Part shown: piece by piece, positions 3,111-53,008 of the stretch
Layout of the letters: every line of letters starts with the position of its first letter
How positions within the stretch are numbered: position 1 is the stretch's first letter
IMG/VR virus record: IMGVR_UViG_3300025120_013163
Location: 1 to 53,008 of that record
Source of the DNA: a virus
Taxonomy: Duplodnaviria; Caudoviricetes
Strand: one strand, 5' to 3'
DNA: 53,008 nt
Position numbers and translations under genes: made by a program
Notes under the pieces: model-generated
The model's input: the letters and a program-made list of their open reading frames with translations, nothing else
Database searches by the model: none
Told to the model about the DNA's origin: nothing

Positions 3111-3809
3111 ATGGCAAAAAATAAAAACGCTAAAATTCATGAAAAATTAGAAGTTGTACAAAAAGGTTTTGCAAATGGGGTTGCAACTAATTTTCCTTTA
3201 AGTGATAAACAAAAGGAAAAAATGATTGAAAAAGCAACTAAAGCATATGGGGAATTTTTAACTGCATTAGATTGTGATTGGGAAAATGATCCTAATTCAA
3301 ATGATACACCTAGACGTGTAGCTAAAGCTTATGTAAATGATTTATGGGCTGGTAGATATACAGCTATGTCTCCTATAACATCTTTTCCTTCAGATGGTTA
3401 TGATGGAATTGTAATTGAAAGAAATATTCCATTAACATCTATGTGTTCACATCATCACCAAACAATTAGTGGTGTAGTTCATATAGGTTATATAGCTGGA
3501 GAAGATGGTCAAGTAGTTGGATTATCTAAATTAAATAGAATAGTTGAATTATTTGGGCGAAGAGGAGCTATACAAGAACAATTAACATCAGCTATTCATA
3601 ATGCTGTGCATCATATTACTGAAGGTAATAGAGGTGTTATAGTAACTATAGTTGCAGGACATAATTGTGTAAGTTGTAGAGGAGTTAAACATCAAGGAGC
3701 AGGTATGGTAACTACTAAAGCATCAGGTGTATTTAGACAAAATACTAATTTAGCAAGAAAAGAGTTTTTTGACAGTTTAAAAATTAATAATGGAGGACAT
3801 CAAATTTAA
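3111..3809 (+). CDS. folE: GTP cyclohydrolase I
   Basis: DTPRRVAK, SMCSHH, GLSKLNR, IQEQLT and HNCVSCRGV motifs. Confidence 0.95.
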   Translation: MAKNKNAKIHEKLEVVQKGFANGVATNFPLSDKQKEKMIEKATKAYGEFLTALDCDWENDPNSNDTPRRVAKAYVNDLWAGRYTAMSPITSFPSDGYDGIVIERNIPLTSMCSHHHQTISGVVHIGYIAGEDGQVVGLSKLNRIVELFGRRGAIQEQLTSAIHNAVHHITEGNRGVIVTIVAGHNCVSCRGVKHQGAGMVTTKASGVFRQNTNLARKEFFDSLKINNGGHQI

Positions 3810-9302: not shown

Positions 9303-10940
9303 ATGAGTAAAATTATAGAATTTGGCCCTGAGGGTAGAAATAAATTAGTAAAAGGAATTGACACATTAGCTAATGCTGTAGTATCAACATTAGGTCCTAA
9401 TGGGAGAAATGTAGTAGTTGAAAGACCTAACCAATCACCAATATCAACAAAAGATGGAGTTACAGTAGCAAAACATATAAGTGTGAGTGATCCTGTTGAA
9501 AATTTAGGTGTAAATTTAGTTAGAGAAGCATCTATTAAAACAGCTGATAAAGCTGGTGATGGTACAACTACATCAACCCTTTTAGCAAGAGAAATGATTA
9601 AAGATGGTTTACAATATTTAGCTAATGGAGCTAATGCTGTTGAAATTAAAAGAGGTATTGATAAAGCAGTAAAAGAAGTTATAAATAATCTAAGAGAAAA
9701 TATATCAGAAGACATTTCAGATGAAAATCAATTAGAACAAATTGCAACTATTTCAGCAAATAATGACCCTGAAGTAGGTAAATTAATAGCTACAGCAATG
9801 GATAAAGTAGGGGTTGAAGGTGTAGTTCATATTGAAGAATCTAAAACAGGAGATACTTATTTAGAAACTGTTGAAGGGATGCAGTTTGATAGAGGTTATT
9901 TGTCACATTATTTTGTTACTAATAATAGCACTATGACTTGTACTTTAGAAGACCCTTATATCTTAGTACTAAACCAAAAGTTATCTTCAGTAAAAGATTT
10001 ATTACCTATGTTAGAAGCAGTTTCTAATACTAATAAATCTTTATTAATCATAGCTGAAGATGTTGATAGTGAAGCTTTAGCAACTCTTATTGTAAATAAA
10101 GCTAGAGGTACTATTAAAGTAGCAGCTGTAAAAGCACCTGATTTTGGTGATAGAAGGAAATTAATCCTAGAAGATATAGCTTCAGTAACAGGAGGTCAGG
10201 TATTTGATAAGGATAAAGGAATGAAACTTGATAAATTTTCTTGGGAGTGGTTTGGTGAAGCACGTACTGTAACTATTTCAAAAGAAAAAACAACTATTAT
10301 TGATGGTAAAGGAGATGAAGAATCTGTTAAACAAAGATTAGAAGAACTTACTACTCAAATTGATAAAGCACAATCATCTTTTGAAATTGAAAAATTACAA
10401 GAAAGATTAGCTAAAATGGCTGGTGGTGTTTCTATTATTCATGTTGGTGGTTATACCGAAACTGAAATGAATGAAAAGAAAGATAGAGTTGATGATGCTT
10501 TACATGCAACTAAAGCTGCTATTGAGGAAGGAATTGTACCCGGAGGAGGAGCAGCTTTATTATATGCTAGAGAAACTATACTAACAGGATGTAAAAAATG
10601 TATAGGTAAAAATATTGTTTATAAAGCTTGTGGTAAACCATTTGAACAAATATTAGTTAATGCCGGTAAAGATTCAGTTGAAGCCCAAATGATAGGTAAA
10701 TACCATTTAGTTGATTCTGGTAATGATACTTGGGCTGGATATAACATTAAAACAGATAATGTTGAAGATATGAAACAAACAGGTATTATTGATCCTACTA
10801 AAGTAACAAGAACAGCTCTTGAAAACGCTGCTGCTGTTGCTGGAACTGTATTACTTACAGAATGTATAGTTGTTGATGAACCTAAAGAAGATACTCCACA
10901 ACCACAAATGGACCCATCAATGATGGGAATGGGAATGTAA
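9303..10940 (+). CDS. groEL: chaperonin GroEL
   Basis: TLGPNGRNV, TKDGVTVA, AGDGTTT, EGMQFDRGY, GIVPGGG; Met/Gly tail. Confidence 0.98.
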   Translation: MSKIIEFGPEGRNKLVKGIDTLANAVVSTLGPNGRNVVVERPNQSPISTKDGVTVAKHISVSDPVENLGVNLVREASIKTADKAGDGTTTSTLLAREMIKDGLQYLANGANAVEIKRGIDKAVKEVINNLRENISEDISDENQLEQIATISANNDPEVGKLIATAMDKVGVEGVVHIEESKTGDTYLETVEGMQFDRGYLSHYFVTNNSTMTCTLEDPYILVLNQKLSSVKDLLPMLEAVSNTNKSLLIIAEDVDSEALATLIVNKARGTIKVAAVKAPDFGDRRKLILEDIASVTGGQVFDKDKGMKLDKFSWEWFGEARTVTISKEKTTIIDGKGDEESVKQRLEELTTQIDKAQSSFEIEKLQERLAKMAGGVSIIHVGGYTETEMNEKKDRVDDALHATKAAIEEGIVPGGGAALLYARETILTGCKKCIGKNIVYKACGKPFEQILVNAGKDSVEAQMIGKYHLVDSGNDTWAGYNIKTDNVEDMKQTGIIDPTKVTRTALENAAAVAGTVLLTECIVVDEPKEDTPQPQMDPSMMGMGM

Positions 10941-32106: not shown

Positions 32107-33927
32107 ATGAAAAAGCTAATATTAGCTGTAATAGTCTTGCTTGGACTACAAATACAAGCACAAACCTTTGTAAGTACAACTCCTGAAAACAGAAATGTTA
32201 TACTTGAAGAATTTACAGGTATATATTGTACATATTGTCCTGATGGACATTTAATAGCTCAAGGTTTACATGATGCTAATCCAATGGATGTTTTCTTAAT
32301 TAATATACACACAGGTGGATATGCTAATCCAAATGGACCAAGTGATCCTGATTTTAACTGTTTATTTGGAGCTGCAATTGCAGCTAATTCGGGTTTAGCA
32401 GGTTATCCAGCTGGTACTATTAATAGAGCAACATTTAGTGGAATATCTCCTCAAGGTAGTCCAGGTACTACAGCTTTAAGTAGAGGTGATTGGGTAGCAG
32501 CATCAGCTGATATTATGTCACAACTATCTTATGTTAATGTTGGTGTTCAAGCAAGTTACGATATGTCTACTGGTATTTTAACAGTTAATACGGAAACATA
32601 TTACACACAAACTACTACAAACATAAATGTGTTACACGTAGCAGTAGTACAAAATAACGTACCAGGTCCTCAAACAGGTGCTTTATCATATAACCCAAAT
32701 GCAATAATAACAGGACCTTGGAACCCAACTTATAACCATCAACATATGTTTAGACATTTAATGGATGGTGCTAATGGTTTAGAATTTAATGTTACAACTG
32801 CGGGTACATTTGTTCCTAATACACATACATGGCAAATGCCTACTAATTTAGCTAGTGGTCAATCAACTACTGGATTTTTTCCAGATTTAGACCCTACAAA
32901 TTTAGATGTTGTAGCTTATATAACTGAAGGTCCAGGTGAAATTATTACTGGTTTTCAAGCTAATGTAGCACCTATATTTCCAAATGCATATGACGCTAAT
33001 GTAACTAACTCAACAGCTGAAAGTGTTGTTTGTGCTAGTGAAACAGATATAACTATTACATTTAGAAATTATGGTAATCAAAATTTAACATCATTAGATT
33101 TAACTTATGATATTAATGGTAGTACTTATCCTGCTATTAATTGGACTGGTAATTTAGCTTCAGGTGCTGAAGAAACATTAACCCTTAATAGTGTTACTTT
33201 TACACCACAAGCTAATAATACAGTTACTTGGGTAGCTAGTAATCCTAATGGACAAATAGATCAAAATACAACTAATAATTCATTAATTTCTACATTTACA
33301 CATTTTGATTTAAATGGTGATGTAGTAAACGGAATATCACCTGGAACTATTAATGTAGATATTTTAACTGATGGTTATGGAAGTGAAACAACATGGGAAG
33401 TTATTGATGAAAGTGGTATAGTAGTTGGTTCTGGTGGTCCTTATAATAACAATACTCAATATAATGAAACTGCTTATGTAAATAGTAATGAGTGTTATAC
33501 TTTTAATTTATATGATTCATACGGTGATGGAATGTGTTGCGCAAATGGTGTAGGTGAAGTAGTAGTAATGGATCAAAATGGTAATACTATTTTTGAAGGT
33601 GATCCTGTTAATTTACAAAATTTTACAGAATTAGGTGTGTATTTTTCTACAGGTATGGGAAGTAGTAATTCATGGGAATGTACACCATTTGGATGTGCTG
33701 ACGTAGGTATTGGTCTTGGAACGTATGCTACGCAATTAGATTGTGAATCTGATATAGCTAATGCAAATACACCATGTTTTGTTATAACAAGTATAAACGA
33801 AATAGAATTATCTACTAAAATTAATAAAATTTATGATGTATTAGGCAGAGAATATAAATCTAAAGTTGGAGAATTAGAAAATGGTTTGTATATTATCGAT
33901 AACATTAAAGTAATAATTAATAAATAA
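32107..33927 (+). CDS. secreted Omp28-like thioredoxin-fold protein with Ig/CARDB-like domain and T9SS-like C-terminus
   Basis: Sec signal MKKLILAVIVLLGLQIQA, NVILEEFTGIYCTYCPDG, HQHMFR; C-terminus KIYDVLGR...GLYII..KVII. Confidence 0.8.
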   Translation: MKKLILAVIVLLGLQIQAQTFVSTTPENRNVILEEFTGIYCTYCPDGHLIAQGLHDANPMDVFLINIHTGGYANPNGPSDPDFNCLFGAAIAANSGLAGYPAGTINRATFSGISPQGSPGTTALSRGDWVAASADIMSQLSYVNVGVQASYDMSTGILTVNTETYYTQTTTNINVLHVAVVQNNVPGPQTGALSYNPNAIITGPWNPTYNHQHMFRHLMDGANGLEFNVTTAGTFVPNTHTWQMPTNLASGQSTTGFFPDLDPTNLDVVAYITEGPGEIITGFQANVAPIFPNAYDANVTNSTAESVVCASETDITITFRNYGNQNLTSLDLTYDINGSTYPAINWTGNLASGAEETLTLNSVTFTPQANNTVTWVASNPNGQIDQNTTNNSLISTFTHFDLNGDVVNGISPGTINVDILTDGYGSETTWEVIDESGIVVGSGGPYNNNTQYNETAYVNSNECYTFNLYDSYGDGMCCANGVGEVVVMDQNGNTIFEGDPVNLQNFTELGVYFSTGMGSSNSWECTPFGCADVGIGLGTYATQLDCESDIANANTPCFVITSINEIELSTKINKIYDVLGREYKSKVGELENGLYIIDNIKVIINK

Positions 33928-38992: not shown

Positions 38993-39007
38993 TTCTAATA
39001 AATCCCC

Positions 39008-39058
39008 GCGAAAATGCTTGGATACCTGAAATATCTTTCGTATATTTATGTATAAATA
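39008..39058 (+). promoter_or_regulatory. repeated promoter
   Basis: gcgaaaatgcttgg-atacctgaaatatct-ttcgtatattta. Confidence 0.85.
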
Positions 39059-39063
39059 AAGAT

Positions 39064-39192
39064 ATGAACAACGAAGAACTATATAGAAAATTAAGAATAA
39101 TTCAAGAATTACTTGATGAAGATGTACGTGAAGCTAAACGTGAATTAGAATACTTAATCCAAGAAGTACACGGTATTACAAAAACAAGATAA
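39064..39192 (+). CDS. small hypothetical protein (42 aa)
   Basis: ATG39064-TAA39192, between two promoter repeats. Confidence 0.55.
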   Translation: MNNEELYRKLRIIQELLDEDVREAKRELEYLIQEVHGITKTR

Positions 39193-39200
39193 AGACTTAT

Positions 39201-39294
39201 GCGAAAATATTTGGAGAAGCCAAATATCTTTCGTATATTTACAGGGTAAATAAGGGCGTAAAGCCAAGTATAAATTAAAAAAATAAAGGTTATG
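39201..39294 (+). promoter_or_regulatory. repeated promoter within an inverted repeat, plus conserved leader
   Basis: cgaaaatatttgg/ccaaatatctttcg stem; 35-nt leader identical to 40055-40089; aaaggttATG. Confidence 0.85.
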
Positions 39295-40002
39295 TTAGAA
39301 CAATTAGAATTATTCCAAGTATTAAATCAAGAACAATTAAATGAAGTTGATAGATTTGTAGAAAGAACAAATCAACAAATAGTTGATAGAGTAGCAAGTA
39401 TAAAGAAAATGATAGATTTACTTGAAGAAGGTGGTTTTGTAGAAGATGTAAACTTTAATAGAAATTTTGAAATAGGAACTAGTACACATGAAAGATCATT
39501 TGGATATGGTGATGATAGTTTTAAAGCTGAAGTAACAGTTAACACAGTAAGTGGTGGTGTTTATTTAATACATAAATATTTTAGAAATGGTTCATGTAAG
39601 TTAACTTCATCAGGAGTTAGTTTAGAAGGTGATAAATTAATGTGCACAATGATAACTCCACAGTACAGAGCTTATAAACCATCTACATTATTAGTTAAGT
39701 TAAATGAATATAATCAAGAGCAACAATGGAAATATGATAATGCTGTTAAGAAAAATGAAATATTAAATTATACTCTTGGTAAGTATTCAAAATTATATTC
39801 AAATGCTAAAGTACAAACAGGAAATGGATATGCTGGTAATTCTTCATTCACAACAGTTTTAGTTTCATTTGAGAGTGGTAGTTGGGTTGAATTTAGATTA
39901 GGATATAGAAAAGATGAAGAATATATGTTTAAAAAATTTGATGCTAAGGTTGATGCATTAAAAGGTATGGATTTATTAAATCATTTTAATAAACAATCAT
40001 AA
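39292..40002 (+). CDS. hypothetical protein
   Basis: 236 aa ORF after promoter/leader. Confidence 0.8.
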   Translation: MLEQLELFQVLNQEQLNEVDRFVERTNQQIVDRVASIKKMIDLLEEGGFVEDVNFNRNFEIGTSTHERSFGYGDDSFKAEVTVNTVSGGVYLIHKYFRNGSCKLTSSGVSLEGDKLMCTMITPQYRAYKPSTLLVKLNEYNQEQQWKYDNAVKKNEILNYTLGKYSKLYSNAKVQTGNGYAGNSSFTTVLVSFESGSWVEFRLGYRKDEEYMFKKFDAKVDALKGMDLLNHFNKQS

Positions 40003-40009
40003 AGTAATT

Positions 40010-40105
40010 GCGAAAGGGGTAGGATACCTGAGATCCCTTTCGTATATTTACGGAGTAAATAAGGGCGTAAAGCCAAGTATAAATTAAAATTAAATAAAAG
40101 TTATG
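40010..40105 (+). promoter_or_regulatory. repeated promoter (AGG variant) within an inverted repeat, plus conserved leader
   Basis: cgaaaggg/ccctttcg stem; agg-N15-ttcgtatattta; leader identical to 39246-39280. Confidence 0.85.
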
Positions 40106-40261
40106 AGTGAAACAAGATTAAAAGAGTTACAAGATGAAATTGCTAGATTAAGAGAAATAGATAGACAAATATCTGAAAGAGTAGATAAAGAGGCAGATAA
40201 TTCTATAGTAATAGAATGCAGTGCAGATTTAGATTTAGCAATGCAATATGAAAGCGAATAA
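40103..40261 (+). CDS. small hypothetical protein (52 aa)
   Basis: aaaagttATG40103-TAA40261. Confidence 0.6.
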   Translation: MSETRLKELQDEIARLREIDRQISERVDKEADNSIVIECSADLDLAMQYESE

Positions 40262-46185: not shown

Positions 46186-46902
46186 ATGTTATTAAGACAT
46201 GATTTAAAAGATCTATTAGTCCCTTTTAAAGGTAGTGACAAAATTAAAACAAACTATTCAGAAGTATTTCAAGATATTTTTGTATTACAATGTTTAAATG
46301 GAAAAAAGAATGGAATATATTTAGAAATTGGAGCTGCTGGTCCTGTAAGTGGAAATAATACATATTTACTAGAAAAAGAATTTGGATGGACTGGTTTATC
46401 TATAGATTATGGATATGATGATTGGGATGATAGTGTAGTTATAACTTGTGATAATCAGAGCTTTTCAAGAAGTGGGTTTAAAAAATATTGGGAAGGAAAG
46501 TGGCATAAAGATAGAGATCAACCTTTATTATTAACTAATGCTATAACTTGTGATTGGATAAATATTATAAATGATACTATAATAGATTATCTACAAGTTG
46601 ATATAGACCCACCAGGAGGTACTTATGAATGTTTAGAGAGATTACCATTTGATACAGTTGATTTTAAAGTTATAACTTATGAACATGATGCTTATGCAGA
46701 ACCTGAATGGAGAATAAAATCAAGAAAGTTTTTAGAGTCTAAAGGATATGTTTTAATAGCTGGAAATATATCAAAAGAATATGGTTCACCATTTGAAGAT
46801 TGGTGGATTAATTTAAAATATATAAATGAAATAAACCCTTTAATTAAAAGAAACATATTTGAAGAATCTTTACCAGTAATGAAATATTTATTTAATAAAT
46901 GA
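46186..46902 (+). CDS. FkbM-like methyltransferase
   Basis: QDIFV, YLEIGA, NNTYLLE, IDYLQVDID and EDWW motifs. Confidence 0.82.
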   Translation: MLLRHDLKDLLVPFKGSDKIKTNYSEVFQDIFVLQCLNGKKNGIYLEIGAAGPVSGNNTYLLEKEFGWTGLSIDYGYDDWDDSVVITCDNQSFSRSGFKKYWEGKWHKDRDQPLLLTNAITCDWINIINDTIIDYLQVDIDPPGGTYECLERLPFDTVDFKVITYEHDAYAEPEWRIKSRKFLESKGYVLIAGNISKEYGSPFEDWWINLKYINEINPLIKRNIFEESLPVMKYLFNK

Positions 46903-50271: not shown

Positions 50272-50427
50272 ATGGTAGATGTTTTAGCAGGTATTGGTGT
50301 AATTGCGCTAGTTATTGGTGCAGGAATTTTCGTTAATTATATGGAGAATGTAGATGATAAACGTAAGCAAGATAGAAATGATGATTATGTTGAAGATGAT
50401 GATTGGTGGAATGATCAAGAAGCATGA
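50272..50427 (+). CDS. small membrane protein with acidic tail (51 aa)
   Basis: ataggttATG50272; MVDVLAGIGVIALVIGAGIFV...DDYVEDDDWW. Confidence 0.6.
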   Translation: MVDVLAGIGVIALVIGAGIFVNYMENVDDKRKQDRNDDYVEDDDWWNDQEA

Positions 50428-50654
50428 GACGAATCAAGGAGGTAAAGTGGAAGCGTAAGTGTGTTATGTGTGAGGAAGTAAATTCAGCGTGGATTGAGAT
50501 TACGGTGAAGACGGAAGGTAAAGACAAACACATTATATGTGAGCCGTGTTTAACTAAAATACTTTCATTAGATCATTGGGGAATAAAGGTACATCGCATA
50601 GCTAAAAAGTGGGCATTTCCTGAGTGGATGCTTGATAGAATTAAGAGTAAATAA
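50424..50654 (+). CDS. small zinc-binding protein
   Basis: CVMC...CEPC; ATGA overlap with the upstream ORF. Confidence 0.6.
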   Translation: MRRIKEVKWKRKCVMCEEVNSAWIEITVKTEGKDKHIICEPCLTKILSLDHWGIKVHRIAKKWAFPEWMLDRIKSK

Positions 50655-51906
50655 GCGTATTAAATTAAGTGACTTTGGTAGCGATTAATGCAATGGCTGG
50701 CTAAAGTGAATAATAATTGGACAATAAAAAACGCTGGATAACGTAAAGCGTTGTGTGGGCTCCATTTCCAACCCGTTAAGTAGGACAAACTATAATCAAT
50801 TATGACAAGTAAATGGCAAGCAGCAATTGCATGTGACAATAGATGATGGGGTTATATGACACAAATTATGAGTGGTGCTAGCCCCCATTTGATGCGCATC
50901 CAAACTCTACTATAGTTACCAAATATATACTTGTACAGCACATATGTTCATAAATTTTCATAACAATTCACAAAGAAATGTGTGGAATGGCGTGGATATG
51001 TGGGGGAGATTGCGTATATTGGGGTAAATAATGGCATTACAGCCGTTGGGAAGCATACTACGGTGACGATGCTAGCGGTGAGCAGTACCTTAATACATAA
51101 TAAACCGTACCCTATTATTAATTATTAGTTAATTACGTCGCACCTAGTGGTACCTGGGTTAGTACCTTATACTATACTATCTTCACCGTATGCGTTACTG
51201 GATTCGATACAACTATTACTATTATATCTACTACATACCTACGCTTAGCGGGCGTACCGCCGCCGTACTACATAATAATACCCACCGTGCGCAGATATCC
51301 ATATGGCGTGGATACGCGATAGAAAGGATGTGGACCACTTTAAAGATCGTAAACGACCTTAACCCATCGATTGTATATACTTATATCATTGATCGCCTCC
51401 CACATTAATTTATTGATGATTTTATAAAGTTACCACCGGATGAGTATATATTGATATAGGGTACCGGTGGTTGAATGTAATCTTCACCGTTACATTCTTC
51501 ACCGTCGCTGGAATAATAATTATCATATCACCTCCTTGGAAAACTTTTGTAAACCAATTTCGTCATCATTAAGTCATACATGCGTACCACCCTAGTACAA
51601 TTTATTTACCATTTAATATTCCAGCTCAAACTATATATAACCATGAATATAGAAAAAAATAGAGTAGACGTATCATCAGCCCTATATGTAATTATTATGG
51701 TGGTGGTTTTTACACTAGCGTTAAATTATTAAACCCCATTTCCCATATGGGTAAGGGTTTGGGGAATTTAACATCCTCAAATCACTTTTTTTATAAAATT
51801 TTTAACATGGCATGAATATATACGTATCTAGGTATGCGGGTATGCTAAGAGGAAGAGTTCTTAGACGACTTTATGAATTTAGTAATATTTATAATAAAAT
51901 TATATT
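50655..51906. other. long structured noncoding region (candidate origin, packaging/terminal region or ncRNA)
   Basis: only large gene-free stretch; GC-richer; many hairpins; oriented TCTTCACCGT and GTACC repeats. Confidence 0.6.
50992..51030 (+). promoter_or_regulatory. variant of the repeated promoter with no downstream ORF
   Basis: gtgg-atatgtgggggagat-tgcgtatatt...gtaaata with 15-nt spacer. Confidence 0.6.
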
Positions 51907-52335
51907 ATGCCACTTACTCTTAACTTTTCTTCTGCACAACTAAATGGAGCAGGGAGTTTAATAGGTTCACAATTACAAAATAATCAACCTCAAACCCCTT
52001 ATTTGTTTACTATATATTATCCTAATGCGGGAAGTGGTACTGCATATTTTAATATAGGAGTTGCCCCAAATAATAATGGAAATTTTAGTGGAAGCTTTAG
52101 TGGAAGTTTTTCTACTGGAAGTTTTGGATTTACTGGATCTTTATCTGGTTCATTTATAACTAGTTCTGGAATTAATTTAAATGGATATATCTCTTCAAAT
52201 TATATAAATAGTGTAGTTATTTCATTACCAACTCAATCCTTTCAATTAGCTCCTCTAAATGTTATTCAACCCAATACTTTAAATGTTAGTGGAACTGGTG
52301 GTATTTATTTGGTTATTGAGTCAAATGATGCATAA
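51907..52335 (+). CDS. Gly/Ser-rich beta-type protein, possibly structural
   Basis: GNFSGSFSGSFSTGSFGFTGSLSGSF repeats; almost no charged residues. Confidence 0.6.
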   Translation: MPLTLNFSSAQLNGAGSLIGSQLQNNQPQTPYLFTIYYPNAGSGTAYFNIGVAPNNNGNFSGSFSGSFSTGSFGFTGSLSGSFITSSGINLNGYISSNYINSVVISLPTQSFQLAPLNVIQPNTLNVSGTGGIYLVIESNDA

Positions 52336-52341
52336 GTTTTA

Positions 52342-52391
52342 AAAGTAATGCGCAGGAGGCTTGGATACCCGAGAGAGCTTTCGTATATTTA
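52342..52391 (+). promoter_or_regulatory. repeated promoter, 50-nt copy A
   Basis: 48/50 identical to 52686-52735. Confidence 0.88.
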
Positions 52392-52440
52392 TGTCATAAA
52401 TGAGTGCAAAACGCACACATACTAATAAAAAATAAAGGTT

Positions 52441-52692
52441 ATGAATTTTACAAAAACAACAGAAGGTTTACATAAATTATCATTACAAGAATTAAATGAA
52501 TTTAAAGGTTTAGTTGAACAAATGATTCAATTAAAACAACCAGGCTTTAGAGTAGGAATGAAAGTTGGGGTTGATCATAAAAAAGTTATGGGAATGATTG
52601 GAGAAATTATTAAAGTTAATAATAAAAAATGTAAAGTTAATTTTGATGGTCAAACATTTGTAGTTCCTAAATCAATGATAATAATAAAGTAA
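52441..52692 (+). CDS. small SH3/KOW-like protein
   Basis: FRVGMKV...GEIIKVNNKKCKV...VPKSMI. Confidence 0.65.
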   Translation: MNFTKTTEGLHKLSLQELNEFKGLVEQMIQLKQPGFRVGMKVGVDHKKVMGMIGEIIKVNNKKCKVNFDGQTFVVPKSMIIIK

Positions 52693-52735
52693 TGCGCAGG
52701 AAGCTTGGATACCTGAGAGAGCTTTCGTATATTTA
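52686..52735 (+). promoter_or_regulatory. repeated promoter, 50-nt copy B
   Basis: aaagtaatgcgcaggaagcttgg-N15-ttcgtatattta. Confidence 0.88.
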
Positions 52736-52787
52736 CGGTATAAATAAGTACAAAACACACAAAAACTAATTAAAAAAAATAAAAGTT

Positions 52788-53008
52788 ATGATCAATATAG
52801 AAGATTTACAATCAGCAAAATTTATGAGTAAGGAGGAAATTAGTAAAGTAGCTCCTTCAGTATTTACAATGAATCCTTCAGATGAGGTATCAGATAAATA
52901 TACTCATATTCCAACAGAAGAAGTTATTAATGATATGGAAGAATTAGGTTGGGGAGTTGTTGATGCAAAAGAAGTTAAAGCTAGAACTAAATCAACAAAA
53001 GGATTCCA
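52788..53008 (+). CDS. DUF932/DUF945-like protein (3' truncated)
   Basis: APSVFT....VSDKYTHIPTEEVI..M...GW; aaaagttATG leader. Confidence 0.75.
   Translation, partial: MINIEDLQSAKFMSKEEISKVAPSVFTMNPSDEVSDKYTHIPTEEVINDMEELGWGVVDAKEVKARTKSTKGF

Follow-up and report, generated by a model that had tools for sequence, protein, structure and literature searches.

In the passages of PMC3016281 that deal with phage T4, the repeats of oriE are described as conserved in the syntenic regions of related phages, with an undefined role, and oriF and oriG as pairing a promoter with an unwinding element that is rich in AT and carries an R-loop. PMC3016281 also names iteron origins of plasmids such as R6K gamma. 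These origins have an asymmetric unit in direct and reversed copies near a promoter, all at one locus. The PeSLs of T4-like phages (small composite terminator/promoter sequences mediating shuffling) are presented in PMC4122927. We describe here a locus that resembles each of these in some respects. It lies in a 53,008-bp stretch of viral DNA (the entire IMG/VR record IMGVR_UViG_3300025120_013163, here called the window; 27.7% guanine plus cytosine, GC), and is marked by a short repeated word, the 10-mer TCTTCACCGT, in and beside what is by far the largest stretch of the contig (50655-51906) to lack a credible gene. Our verdict is that a new lineage of T4-like phages has this repeat in its main control region. 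Marine phages of the T4-like kind are abundant but uncultured, and neither their origins nor their early control regions are known; even in T4 the role of the oriE repeats has never been settled. The cis-element at this locus is clearly delimited, unique and conserved, and it comes in natural variants, in which copies have been gained, lost or have become degenerate.

Exact copies of TCTTCACCGT occur four times in the window, all of them inside 50502-51505 (50502-50511 on the minus strand; 51180, 51481 and 51496 on the plus strand), and not once in 100 dinucleotide shuffles of the 53-kb contig. The 7-mer TTCACCG is found at the same four sites and none besides, against a shuffle mean of 0.69, and no shuffle out of 100 reached four. 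Less complete matches accompany these copies (CACCG at 51283 and 51434, tacggtgacg at 51059-51068 and gcggtgag at 51075-51082), and nine of the 12 CACCG/CGGTG cores of the window fall in 50503-51504. The minus-strand copy, taken with one further base (50501-50511), makes a perfect 11-bp inverted repeat with 51180-51190. In three related records (95.6, 53.3 and 32.6 kb; 181 kb in total) exact copies are again restricted to this locus. A sequence-only reading of this DNA, all of whose coordinates proved correct, had drawn attention to the motif as a possible initiator, primase or terminase site, and as flipping its orientation across an AT-rich core. From left to right the five-base cores run - - - + + + - + +, an order that does for the most part switch, except that a reversed core at 51465 stands among forward copies.

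Relatives were collected by means of the protein encoded by the adjoining 76-amino-acid open reading frame (ORF), ORF76, and by protein alignment, which yielded four viral and 26 metagenome loci; exact-block scans contributed five further viral contigs. With contained duplicates removed, the alignment has 32 rows, and the pairwise identities quoted below come from the eight rows that span the whole region. The alignment widens TCTTCACCGT to the 12-mer ATCTTCACCGTA, and the copies, with their state among the rows, are as follows.

50502-50511, minus strand: full reversed copy, inside ORF76; exact in 18 of 28 rows, at most one mismatch in 23 of 28
51059-51068, minus strand: reversed left copy 1; conserved in its core alone, CACCGT(AGT); exact in 0 of 17 rows
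51075-51082, minus strand: left copy 2, reversed, facultative; deleted in 12 of 17 rows
51179-51190, plus strand: central copy 1, the full 12-mer, fixed; 10-mer exact in 15 of 18 rows
51213-51222, plus strand: central copy 2, 33 nucleotides (nt) past central copy 1; degenerate in the window; exact in 4 of 18 rows
51480-51491, plus strand: right copy 1 (ATCTTCACCGTt), fixed; 10-mer exact in 12 of 14 rows
51496-51505, plus strand: right copy 2, facultative, 15 nt past right copy 1; exact in 2 of 14 rows, at most one mismatch in 7 of 14

Relatives repeat this placement and orientation in their homologous region. Both are kept across the 26 metagenome loci: of the 15 that extend to the forward central copy all have it, and of the ten that extend to the right copy, nine do. 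Both fixed 12-mers are islands of identity amid more variable flanks, central copy 1 having a mean pairwise identity of 0.943 (flanks 0.63-0.73) and right copy 1 one of 0.938 (flanks 0.65-0.67); the exceptions to right copy 1 are two rows, one of which is the rearranged contig L017, to which we return below. Two forward copies are fixed and two facultative, with spacings of 33, about 280-310 and 15 bp, and most of the rows in which central copy 2 is not exact have a variant that still bears the core. Since it stands above background frequency and is present in relatives, the motif is a genuine, locus-specific repeat under selection. The reversed motifs of the left side have fared unevenly. The copy at 50502 is indeed full and reversed, but it lies in the coding sequence of ORF76, and the left copies proper keep CACCGT only, the most frequent forms of left copy 1 being TGCTCACCGT, TACCCACCGT and TCGTCACCGT.

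Two further elements bear directly on how the copies might be used.

50993-51020, plus strand: promoter P1, of the class TTGG(A/T)T-N14-TTTCGTATATT, with the class spacing; predicted start near 51027
51088-51135, no strand: AT-richer segment, 20.8% GC, AT-rich by comparison with its flanks only; 22% of the 48-nt intervals of the contig are equally or more AT-rich

The promoter class to which P1 belongs is defined by the contexts of the word CGTATATT, which occurs 12 times on the plus strand of the window and never on the minus strand (sites 3085 to 52726), and 11 of these 12 are shortly followed by a start codon; the class is likewise distributed 4:0 between the strands over 40 kb of a relative. 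P1 is the twelfth member. It is directed towards the repeats, the next ORF being about 615 nt away, and left copy 1 sits 32-41 nt past its predicted start. Among relatives both of its boxes are conserved and the spacer between them is variable. A symmetrical arrangement of the motif about a melting region, as the earlier reading had supposed, is not upheld: the left copies are exact in none of 17 rows, the second of them is deleted in 12, and the AT segment is ordinary and of variable length, an 11-14-nt indel separating groups of relatives. Nor is the idea that the motif is displayed in hairpin loops. The two hairpin strings are present in the window (51473-51497 and 51052-51073), but the 8-bp hairpin around 51481 (-15 kcal/mol) forms only in the window and L007 (two of 13 rows), right copy 1 being elsewhere partly paired with an upstream GGTGG or unpaired, and left copy 1 forms one arm of a stem in five relatives.

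The reading that we prefer, and hold with somewhat less than even confidence, is that the copies are duplex-DNA sites for one sequence-specific protein, and would form an operator or iteron set in a control region. We favour protein-binding DNA because short conserved islands are separated by variable, indel-rich spacers. P1 would fire rightward into the gene-free stretch, and a protein, encoded by either the phage or its host, would dock on the ATCTTCACCGTA copies. The two fixed sense copies (51179 and 51480) would be the constant part of the site set, the additional sense copies 33 and 15 bp behind them coming and going, and the weak reversed copy past the P1 start and the full reversed copy in ORF76 would also belong to it; presentation in hairpin loops would play no part. 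What the analysis shows is the repeat, its restriction to one locus, its conservation, the promoter class and the terminator; that a protein binds the repeat we infer. This protein would control either the start of replication or early transcription, each accounting for about half of the confidence that we place in this reading. Two features recall origins in particular: a promoter lies directly upstream, as in R-loop origins, P1 matching both the boxes and the spacing of its class, and the repeat unit is confined to one locus, as iteron origins require.

Several observations weigh against protein-binding sites of this kind. The copies are few and unevenly spaced, unlike the evenly spaced repeats of T4 oriE, and the AT segment is nothing out of the ordinary in a genome of 27.7% GC. 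Near-matches to the DnaA box number 21 in the window against 24.7 expected, with none in the region; the flanking ORFs include no Rep-like or other recognisable DNA-binding family by Pfam or PHROG; and the GC skew at third codon positions shows no shift (0.284 upstream versus 0.312 downstream), although in a T4-like phage this carries little weight. As an asymmetric word whose fixed intergenic copies are all found behind a promoter and on the strand it transcribes, the motif would fit a role in RNA equally well. ORF76 belongs to no family, its fold model is poor and no binding protein can be named. Finally, the reversed word reads Thr-Val-Lys (ACG-GTG-AAG) in three separate frames, namely in ORF76, in a minus-strand mini-ORF (twice) and at the end of a downstream gene in the relative L003, and for this we offer no explanation.

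The closest known arrangement is T4 oriE, as described in the T4 passages of PMC3016281, with which the locus shares a T4-like phage, an early promoter of host type, a 12-nt unit, small early ORFs and repeats conserved in relatives, and with which it also shares a link between repeat and replication that is unproven in both cases. It differs in that oriE has an even, direct cluster, whereas here the copies are few, uneven and in both orientations; in place of repEA and repEB, no repE-like gene is recognised here, and the locus has no similarity to any phage record. The likeness to oriF and oriG, on the same passages of PMC3016281, lies in a promoter followed 60-110 nt on by a locally AT-richer segment. 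Those minimal origins are about 100 bp long, however, while some 500 nt of conserved sequence continue here beyond an AT segment that is not unusual. An asymmetric unit with direct and reversed copies near a promoter, all at one locus, is also a feature of plasmid iteron origins, among which inverted half-sites are found at the rep promoter. Against this, the present locus has no adjacent initiator gene and no DnaA box, and its copies seem too few and irregular for an origin type in which three or more direct copies of a 12-22-bp unit would stand at regular spacing. With copies that are few, uneven and in two orientations, and with no recognisable initiator, we have filed the locus not as an iteron origin but as one that may act in a similar way; the iteron-like idea put forward in the earlier reading may stand as a fair analogy, unproven.

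A role at the level of RNA is the main rival, since the fixed copies are on the strand that the promoter before them transcribes, and the 615 nt or so after that promoter hold no ORF; we regard it as possible, if rather unlikely. The P1 transcript (about 51027 to 51793) would carry UCUUCACCGUA two to four times as single-stranded words, for an RNA-binding protein or for pairing with the words near its own 5' end (51059) or in the ORF76 messenger RNA (50501-50511), and would in this way tune the leader or the neighbouring gene. The unit is closed by an intrinsic terminator whose stems are group-specific and whose T-run is conserved (listed below), and metatranscriptome contigs cover the region, two of them, from a single study, ending at 51793; the libraries may contain DNA, so contig ends are taken as weak hints only, and a depth profile of RNA was set aside, as it sums contigs of many strains, tracks conservation and may likewise include DNA. 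Central copy 1 has a perfect 11-base complement in the ORF76 word, and one compensatory double change, in L015, preserves the pairing between left copy 1 and right copy 1. Moreover, a 12-bp helix (51373-84/51440-51) is formed by all relatives and depends on G-U pairs on the plus strand alone. Beyond the single L015 case, on the other hand, there is no covariation: RNAalifold on ten sequences gave a positive covariation term (+1.94), with four of 95 pairs doubly changed, and no double changes were seen in the helix that joins left copy 1 to central copy 1, nor in any of 500 shuffles. Folding of 51027-51642 is no better than in shuffles on either strand (z -0.66 on plus, -1.78 on minus); segment z values are mostly near 0, and those of the core (51248-51390) lie between +0.2 and +1.4 on the plus strand in nine of ten relatives. 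The whole window has no Rfam match at the gathering threshold, and at E<=10 the four matches in 50300-53008 are at chance level, none of them within 50655-51906; ARAGORN found no transfer RNA or transfer-messenger RNA. The ORF76 word is changed in L017, L020, L029 and L040 with the leader copies unchanged, and the hairpin that would display the word is not conserved. A large structured RNA, which has neither covariation nor excess folding stability behind it, was rejected as a candidate; the region is conserved as primary sequence, not as structure. A more specific version, in which the P1 transcript would be a non-coding RNA of about 500-760 nt acting by primary sequence, with two to four seeds (UCUUCACCGUA, 11-12 nt) that pair with the ORF76 messenger RNA and with its own 5' end, seems to us distinctly unlikely; if true, it would place a multi-seed regulatory RNA at the border of the plastic early region of a T4-like phage.

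It is quite improbable that the copies have no function of their own and are leftovers of local duplication or of coding constraint, conserved only with the region as a whole. The Thr-Val-Lys readings and the many other blocks of the region that are equally conserved would suit such an origin, but the mini-ORF has lost its start codon in three of 13 rows, central copy 1 lies in no conserved frame, the copies are islands of identity in variable flanks, and four exact 10-mers in 1 kb, with none elsewhere in the window or in 181 kb of relatives, are unlikely to arise by drift. A packaging or genome-end site of the pac or cos kind, in which the words would bind the small terminase like the oppositely oriented R sites of lambda cosB, is highly improbable. 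Its attraction is that, among 11 distinct contigs of at least 20 kb that touch the region, six (95.6, 38.0, 34.3, 32.6, 24.0 and 23.5 kb) begin or end inside it, in less than 1% of the genome. Their ends are spread over about 800 nt (window equivalents 50780 to 51605) with no single position, and because of this scatter the breaks were rejected as evidence for a terminus; identical islands in diverged, co-occurring strains would likewise break assembly graphs, and it is to such breaks, not to a genome end, that we attribute them. The locus also marks a systematic break point of metagenome assemblies in this phage group. In addition, neither circular closure nor terminal repeats were found in the window, all eight related IMG/VR records are classed as lacking end repeats, and a terminase gene was not seen beside the region. 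That the 11-bp inverted repeat, which flanks P1, delimits an invertible segment acting as a phase switch is hardly credible: the 17 rows covering 51060-51084 all run colinear with the window, with no inverted one among them, an inversion would sever ORF76, no gene for a recombinase was noticed in the vicinity, and the sole inverted junction, which occurs in L017, is not at the repeats. At position 3337 of that 5.4-kb metagenome contig, window position 51301 is joined to the reverse strand at 46491 through a 3-nt CCA microhomology; it is probably a chimera of assembly or amplification.

The duplex-DNA sites that we prefer would lie in a stretch with a good deal of other conserved sequence. At a resolution of 50 amino acids its largest piece without an ORF is 535 nt long, the next gap elsewhere being 299 nt. 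The GC content over 50735-51640 is 38%, against 27.7% for the contig, and the stretch is a mosaic of blocks, some of which are better conserved than the adjoining gene. The features that have not so far been listed are these.

50424-50654, plus strand: ORF76, a 76-amino-acid CxxC...CxxC protein that always adjoins the region and bears the full reversed copy of the motif
50781-50862, plus strand: four conserved (G/T)GACA(A/C) words, at 50783, 50803, 50834 and 50857, upstream of P1
50848-50885, plus strand: hairpin GGGGTTA...TAGCCCC, in the folds of ten relatives; stem kept through U-G to U-A changes
51248-51390, no strand: most conserved non-coding core, identity 0.891 versus 0.816 for ORF76; includes the CACCGT word at 51283
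51524-51580, plus strand: conserved block with ATCACCTCCTT, plus a promoter-like TTGGAA...TTTCGT with 4 nt too many in its spacing
51643-51732, plus strand: gene for a 29-amino-acid hydrophobic peptide; frame open in 13 of 15 rows, indels keeping the frame and changes being of synonymous type
51756-51793, plus strand: intrinsic terminator, a hairpin followed by a T-run; T-run in all 13 homologous rows, stems differing between groups
51815-51852, plus strand: conserved block upstream of the next gene (51907-52335)

The (G/T)GACA(A/C) words are spaced by 20, 31 and 23 nt, and the hairpin at 50848-50885 is possibly the terminator of the upstream operon. At the other end of the stretch, metatranscriptome contigs of runs from three studies (one of these runs only guessed to be RNA) begin at 51851/51852, which is a weak hint of an RNA start.

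The 29-amino-acid ORF is the sole piece of the stretch that behaves as a gene. No reading frame is open in all relatives across 51248-51390, the longest frames differing between relatives, and a recoded gene was rejected, no long frame appearing in the stretch under translation table 11, with TAG read as Gln, under table 4, or with TAA read as Gln. A 72-amino-acid plus-strand ORF at 51190-51408 was likewise discarded (several relatives have ACG in place of its ATG, and most rows interrupt the frame), and so was the minus-strand mini-ORF, which would encode 34 amino acids behind a perfect Shine-Dalgarno-like AAGGAGGTGAT and lacks its start in L015, L020 and L024. The word ATCACCTCCTT at 51527-51537 is conserved on the plus strand, and its complement is a perfect Shine-Dalgarno sequence before a non-conserved minus-strand mini-ORF; we take ATCACCTCCTT to be identical to the 3' end of 16S ribosomal RNA.

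ORF76, as the constant neighbour of the locus and a putative zinc-ribbon gene, is a candidate partner of the cis-element. It was aligned in 16 sequences, and over the eight full-length rows of the region its mean pairwise identity is 0.816. Its homologues make up 38 clusters, all hypothetical; it has no Pfam match above the cut-off and no PHROG match, its AlphaFold2 model has a pLDDT (predicted local distance difference test) score of 67.7 and finds no match in the Protein Data Bank by Foldseek at E<=0.001, and a search of the ESM Atlas brought up nothing but hypothetical viral clusters. A scan of viral contigs with ORF76 clusters of 59-67% identity recovered the known group and one contig that stops inside the region. 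In relatives a small ORF for a membrane protein follows directly on ORF76 (L001/L003 6225-6390); the window is without it, at about 50655-50735, through a deletion of about 90 nt.

Downstream, the region adjoins a series of small, swappable genes, and the first gene past it differs among relatives. A cassette of about 100 nt is repeated before small genes (52338-52440 and 52684-52786, and also 39000-39290 and 40000-40110); it holds a promoter of the class (GGCTTGGATACC...TTTCGTATATTT) and a short hairpin (GTGCAAAACGCAC), and several copies are present in every relative. The cassette resembles the PeSL promoter-terminator cassettes that T4-like phages have in hyperplastic regions (PMC4122927). 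The 12-mer, however, does not occur in the cassettes, and a gap of 1.25 kb is far larger than a PeSL.

As to the phage itself, we take the window for part of the genome, probably about 160 kb long, of a marine T4-like myovirus that has not been cultured, because it encodes a DNA polymerase of the T4 gp43 type, one relative has a T4-type baseplate wedge gene some 13-15 kb downstream, CheckV puts the completeness of a 53-kb relative at 33% and that of the 95.6-kb relative at 56%, and contigs bearing ORF76 homologues reach 163 kb. All ORFs of at least 150 amino acids but one are on the plus strand. The products include GroEL (a GroEL-type chaperonin gene at 9303-10940; PHROG E 1e-154) and many sugar-modifying enzymes. 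Searches of 50,697 phage records with 50400-52000 (blastn) and with ORF76 (tblastn) gave no match, and a conserved 35-nt block had none in a collection of bacterial and archaeal genomes. The one-stranded promoter class fits the Bacteroidetes-type consensus TTG-N19-21-TAnnTTTG, and a protein with an Omp28 domain is encoded at 32107-33927; together they hint at a Bacteroidetes host. Near the left end of the window, at 888-2198, lie QueD-like and QueE-like genes (PHROG E 1e-38 and 3e-50), which suggest that the DNA of this phage may carry a 7-deazaguanine modification.

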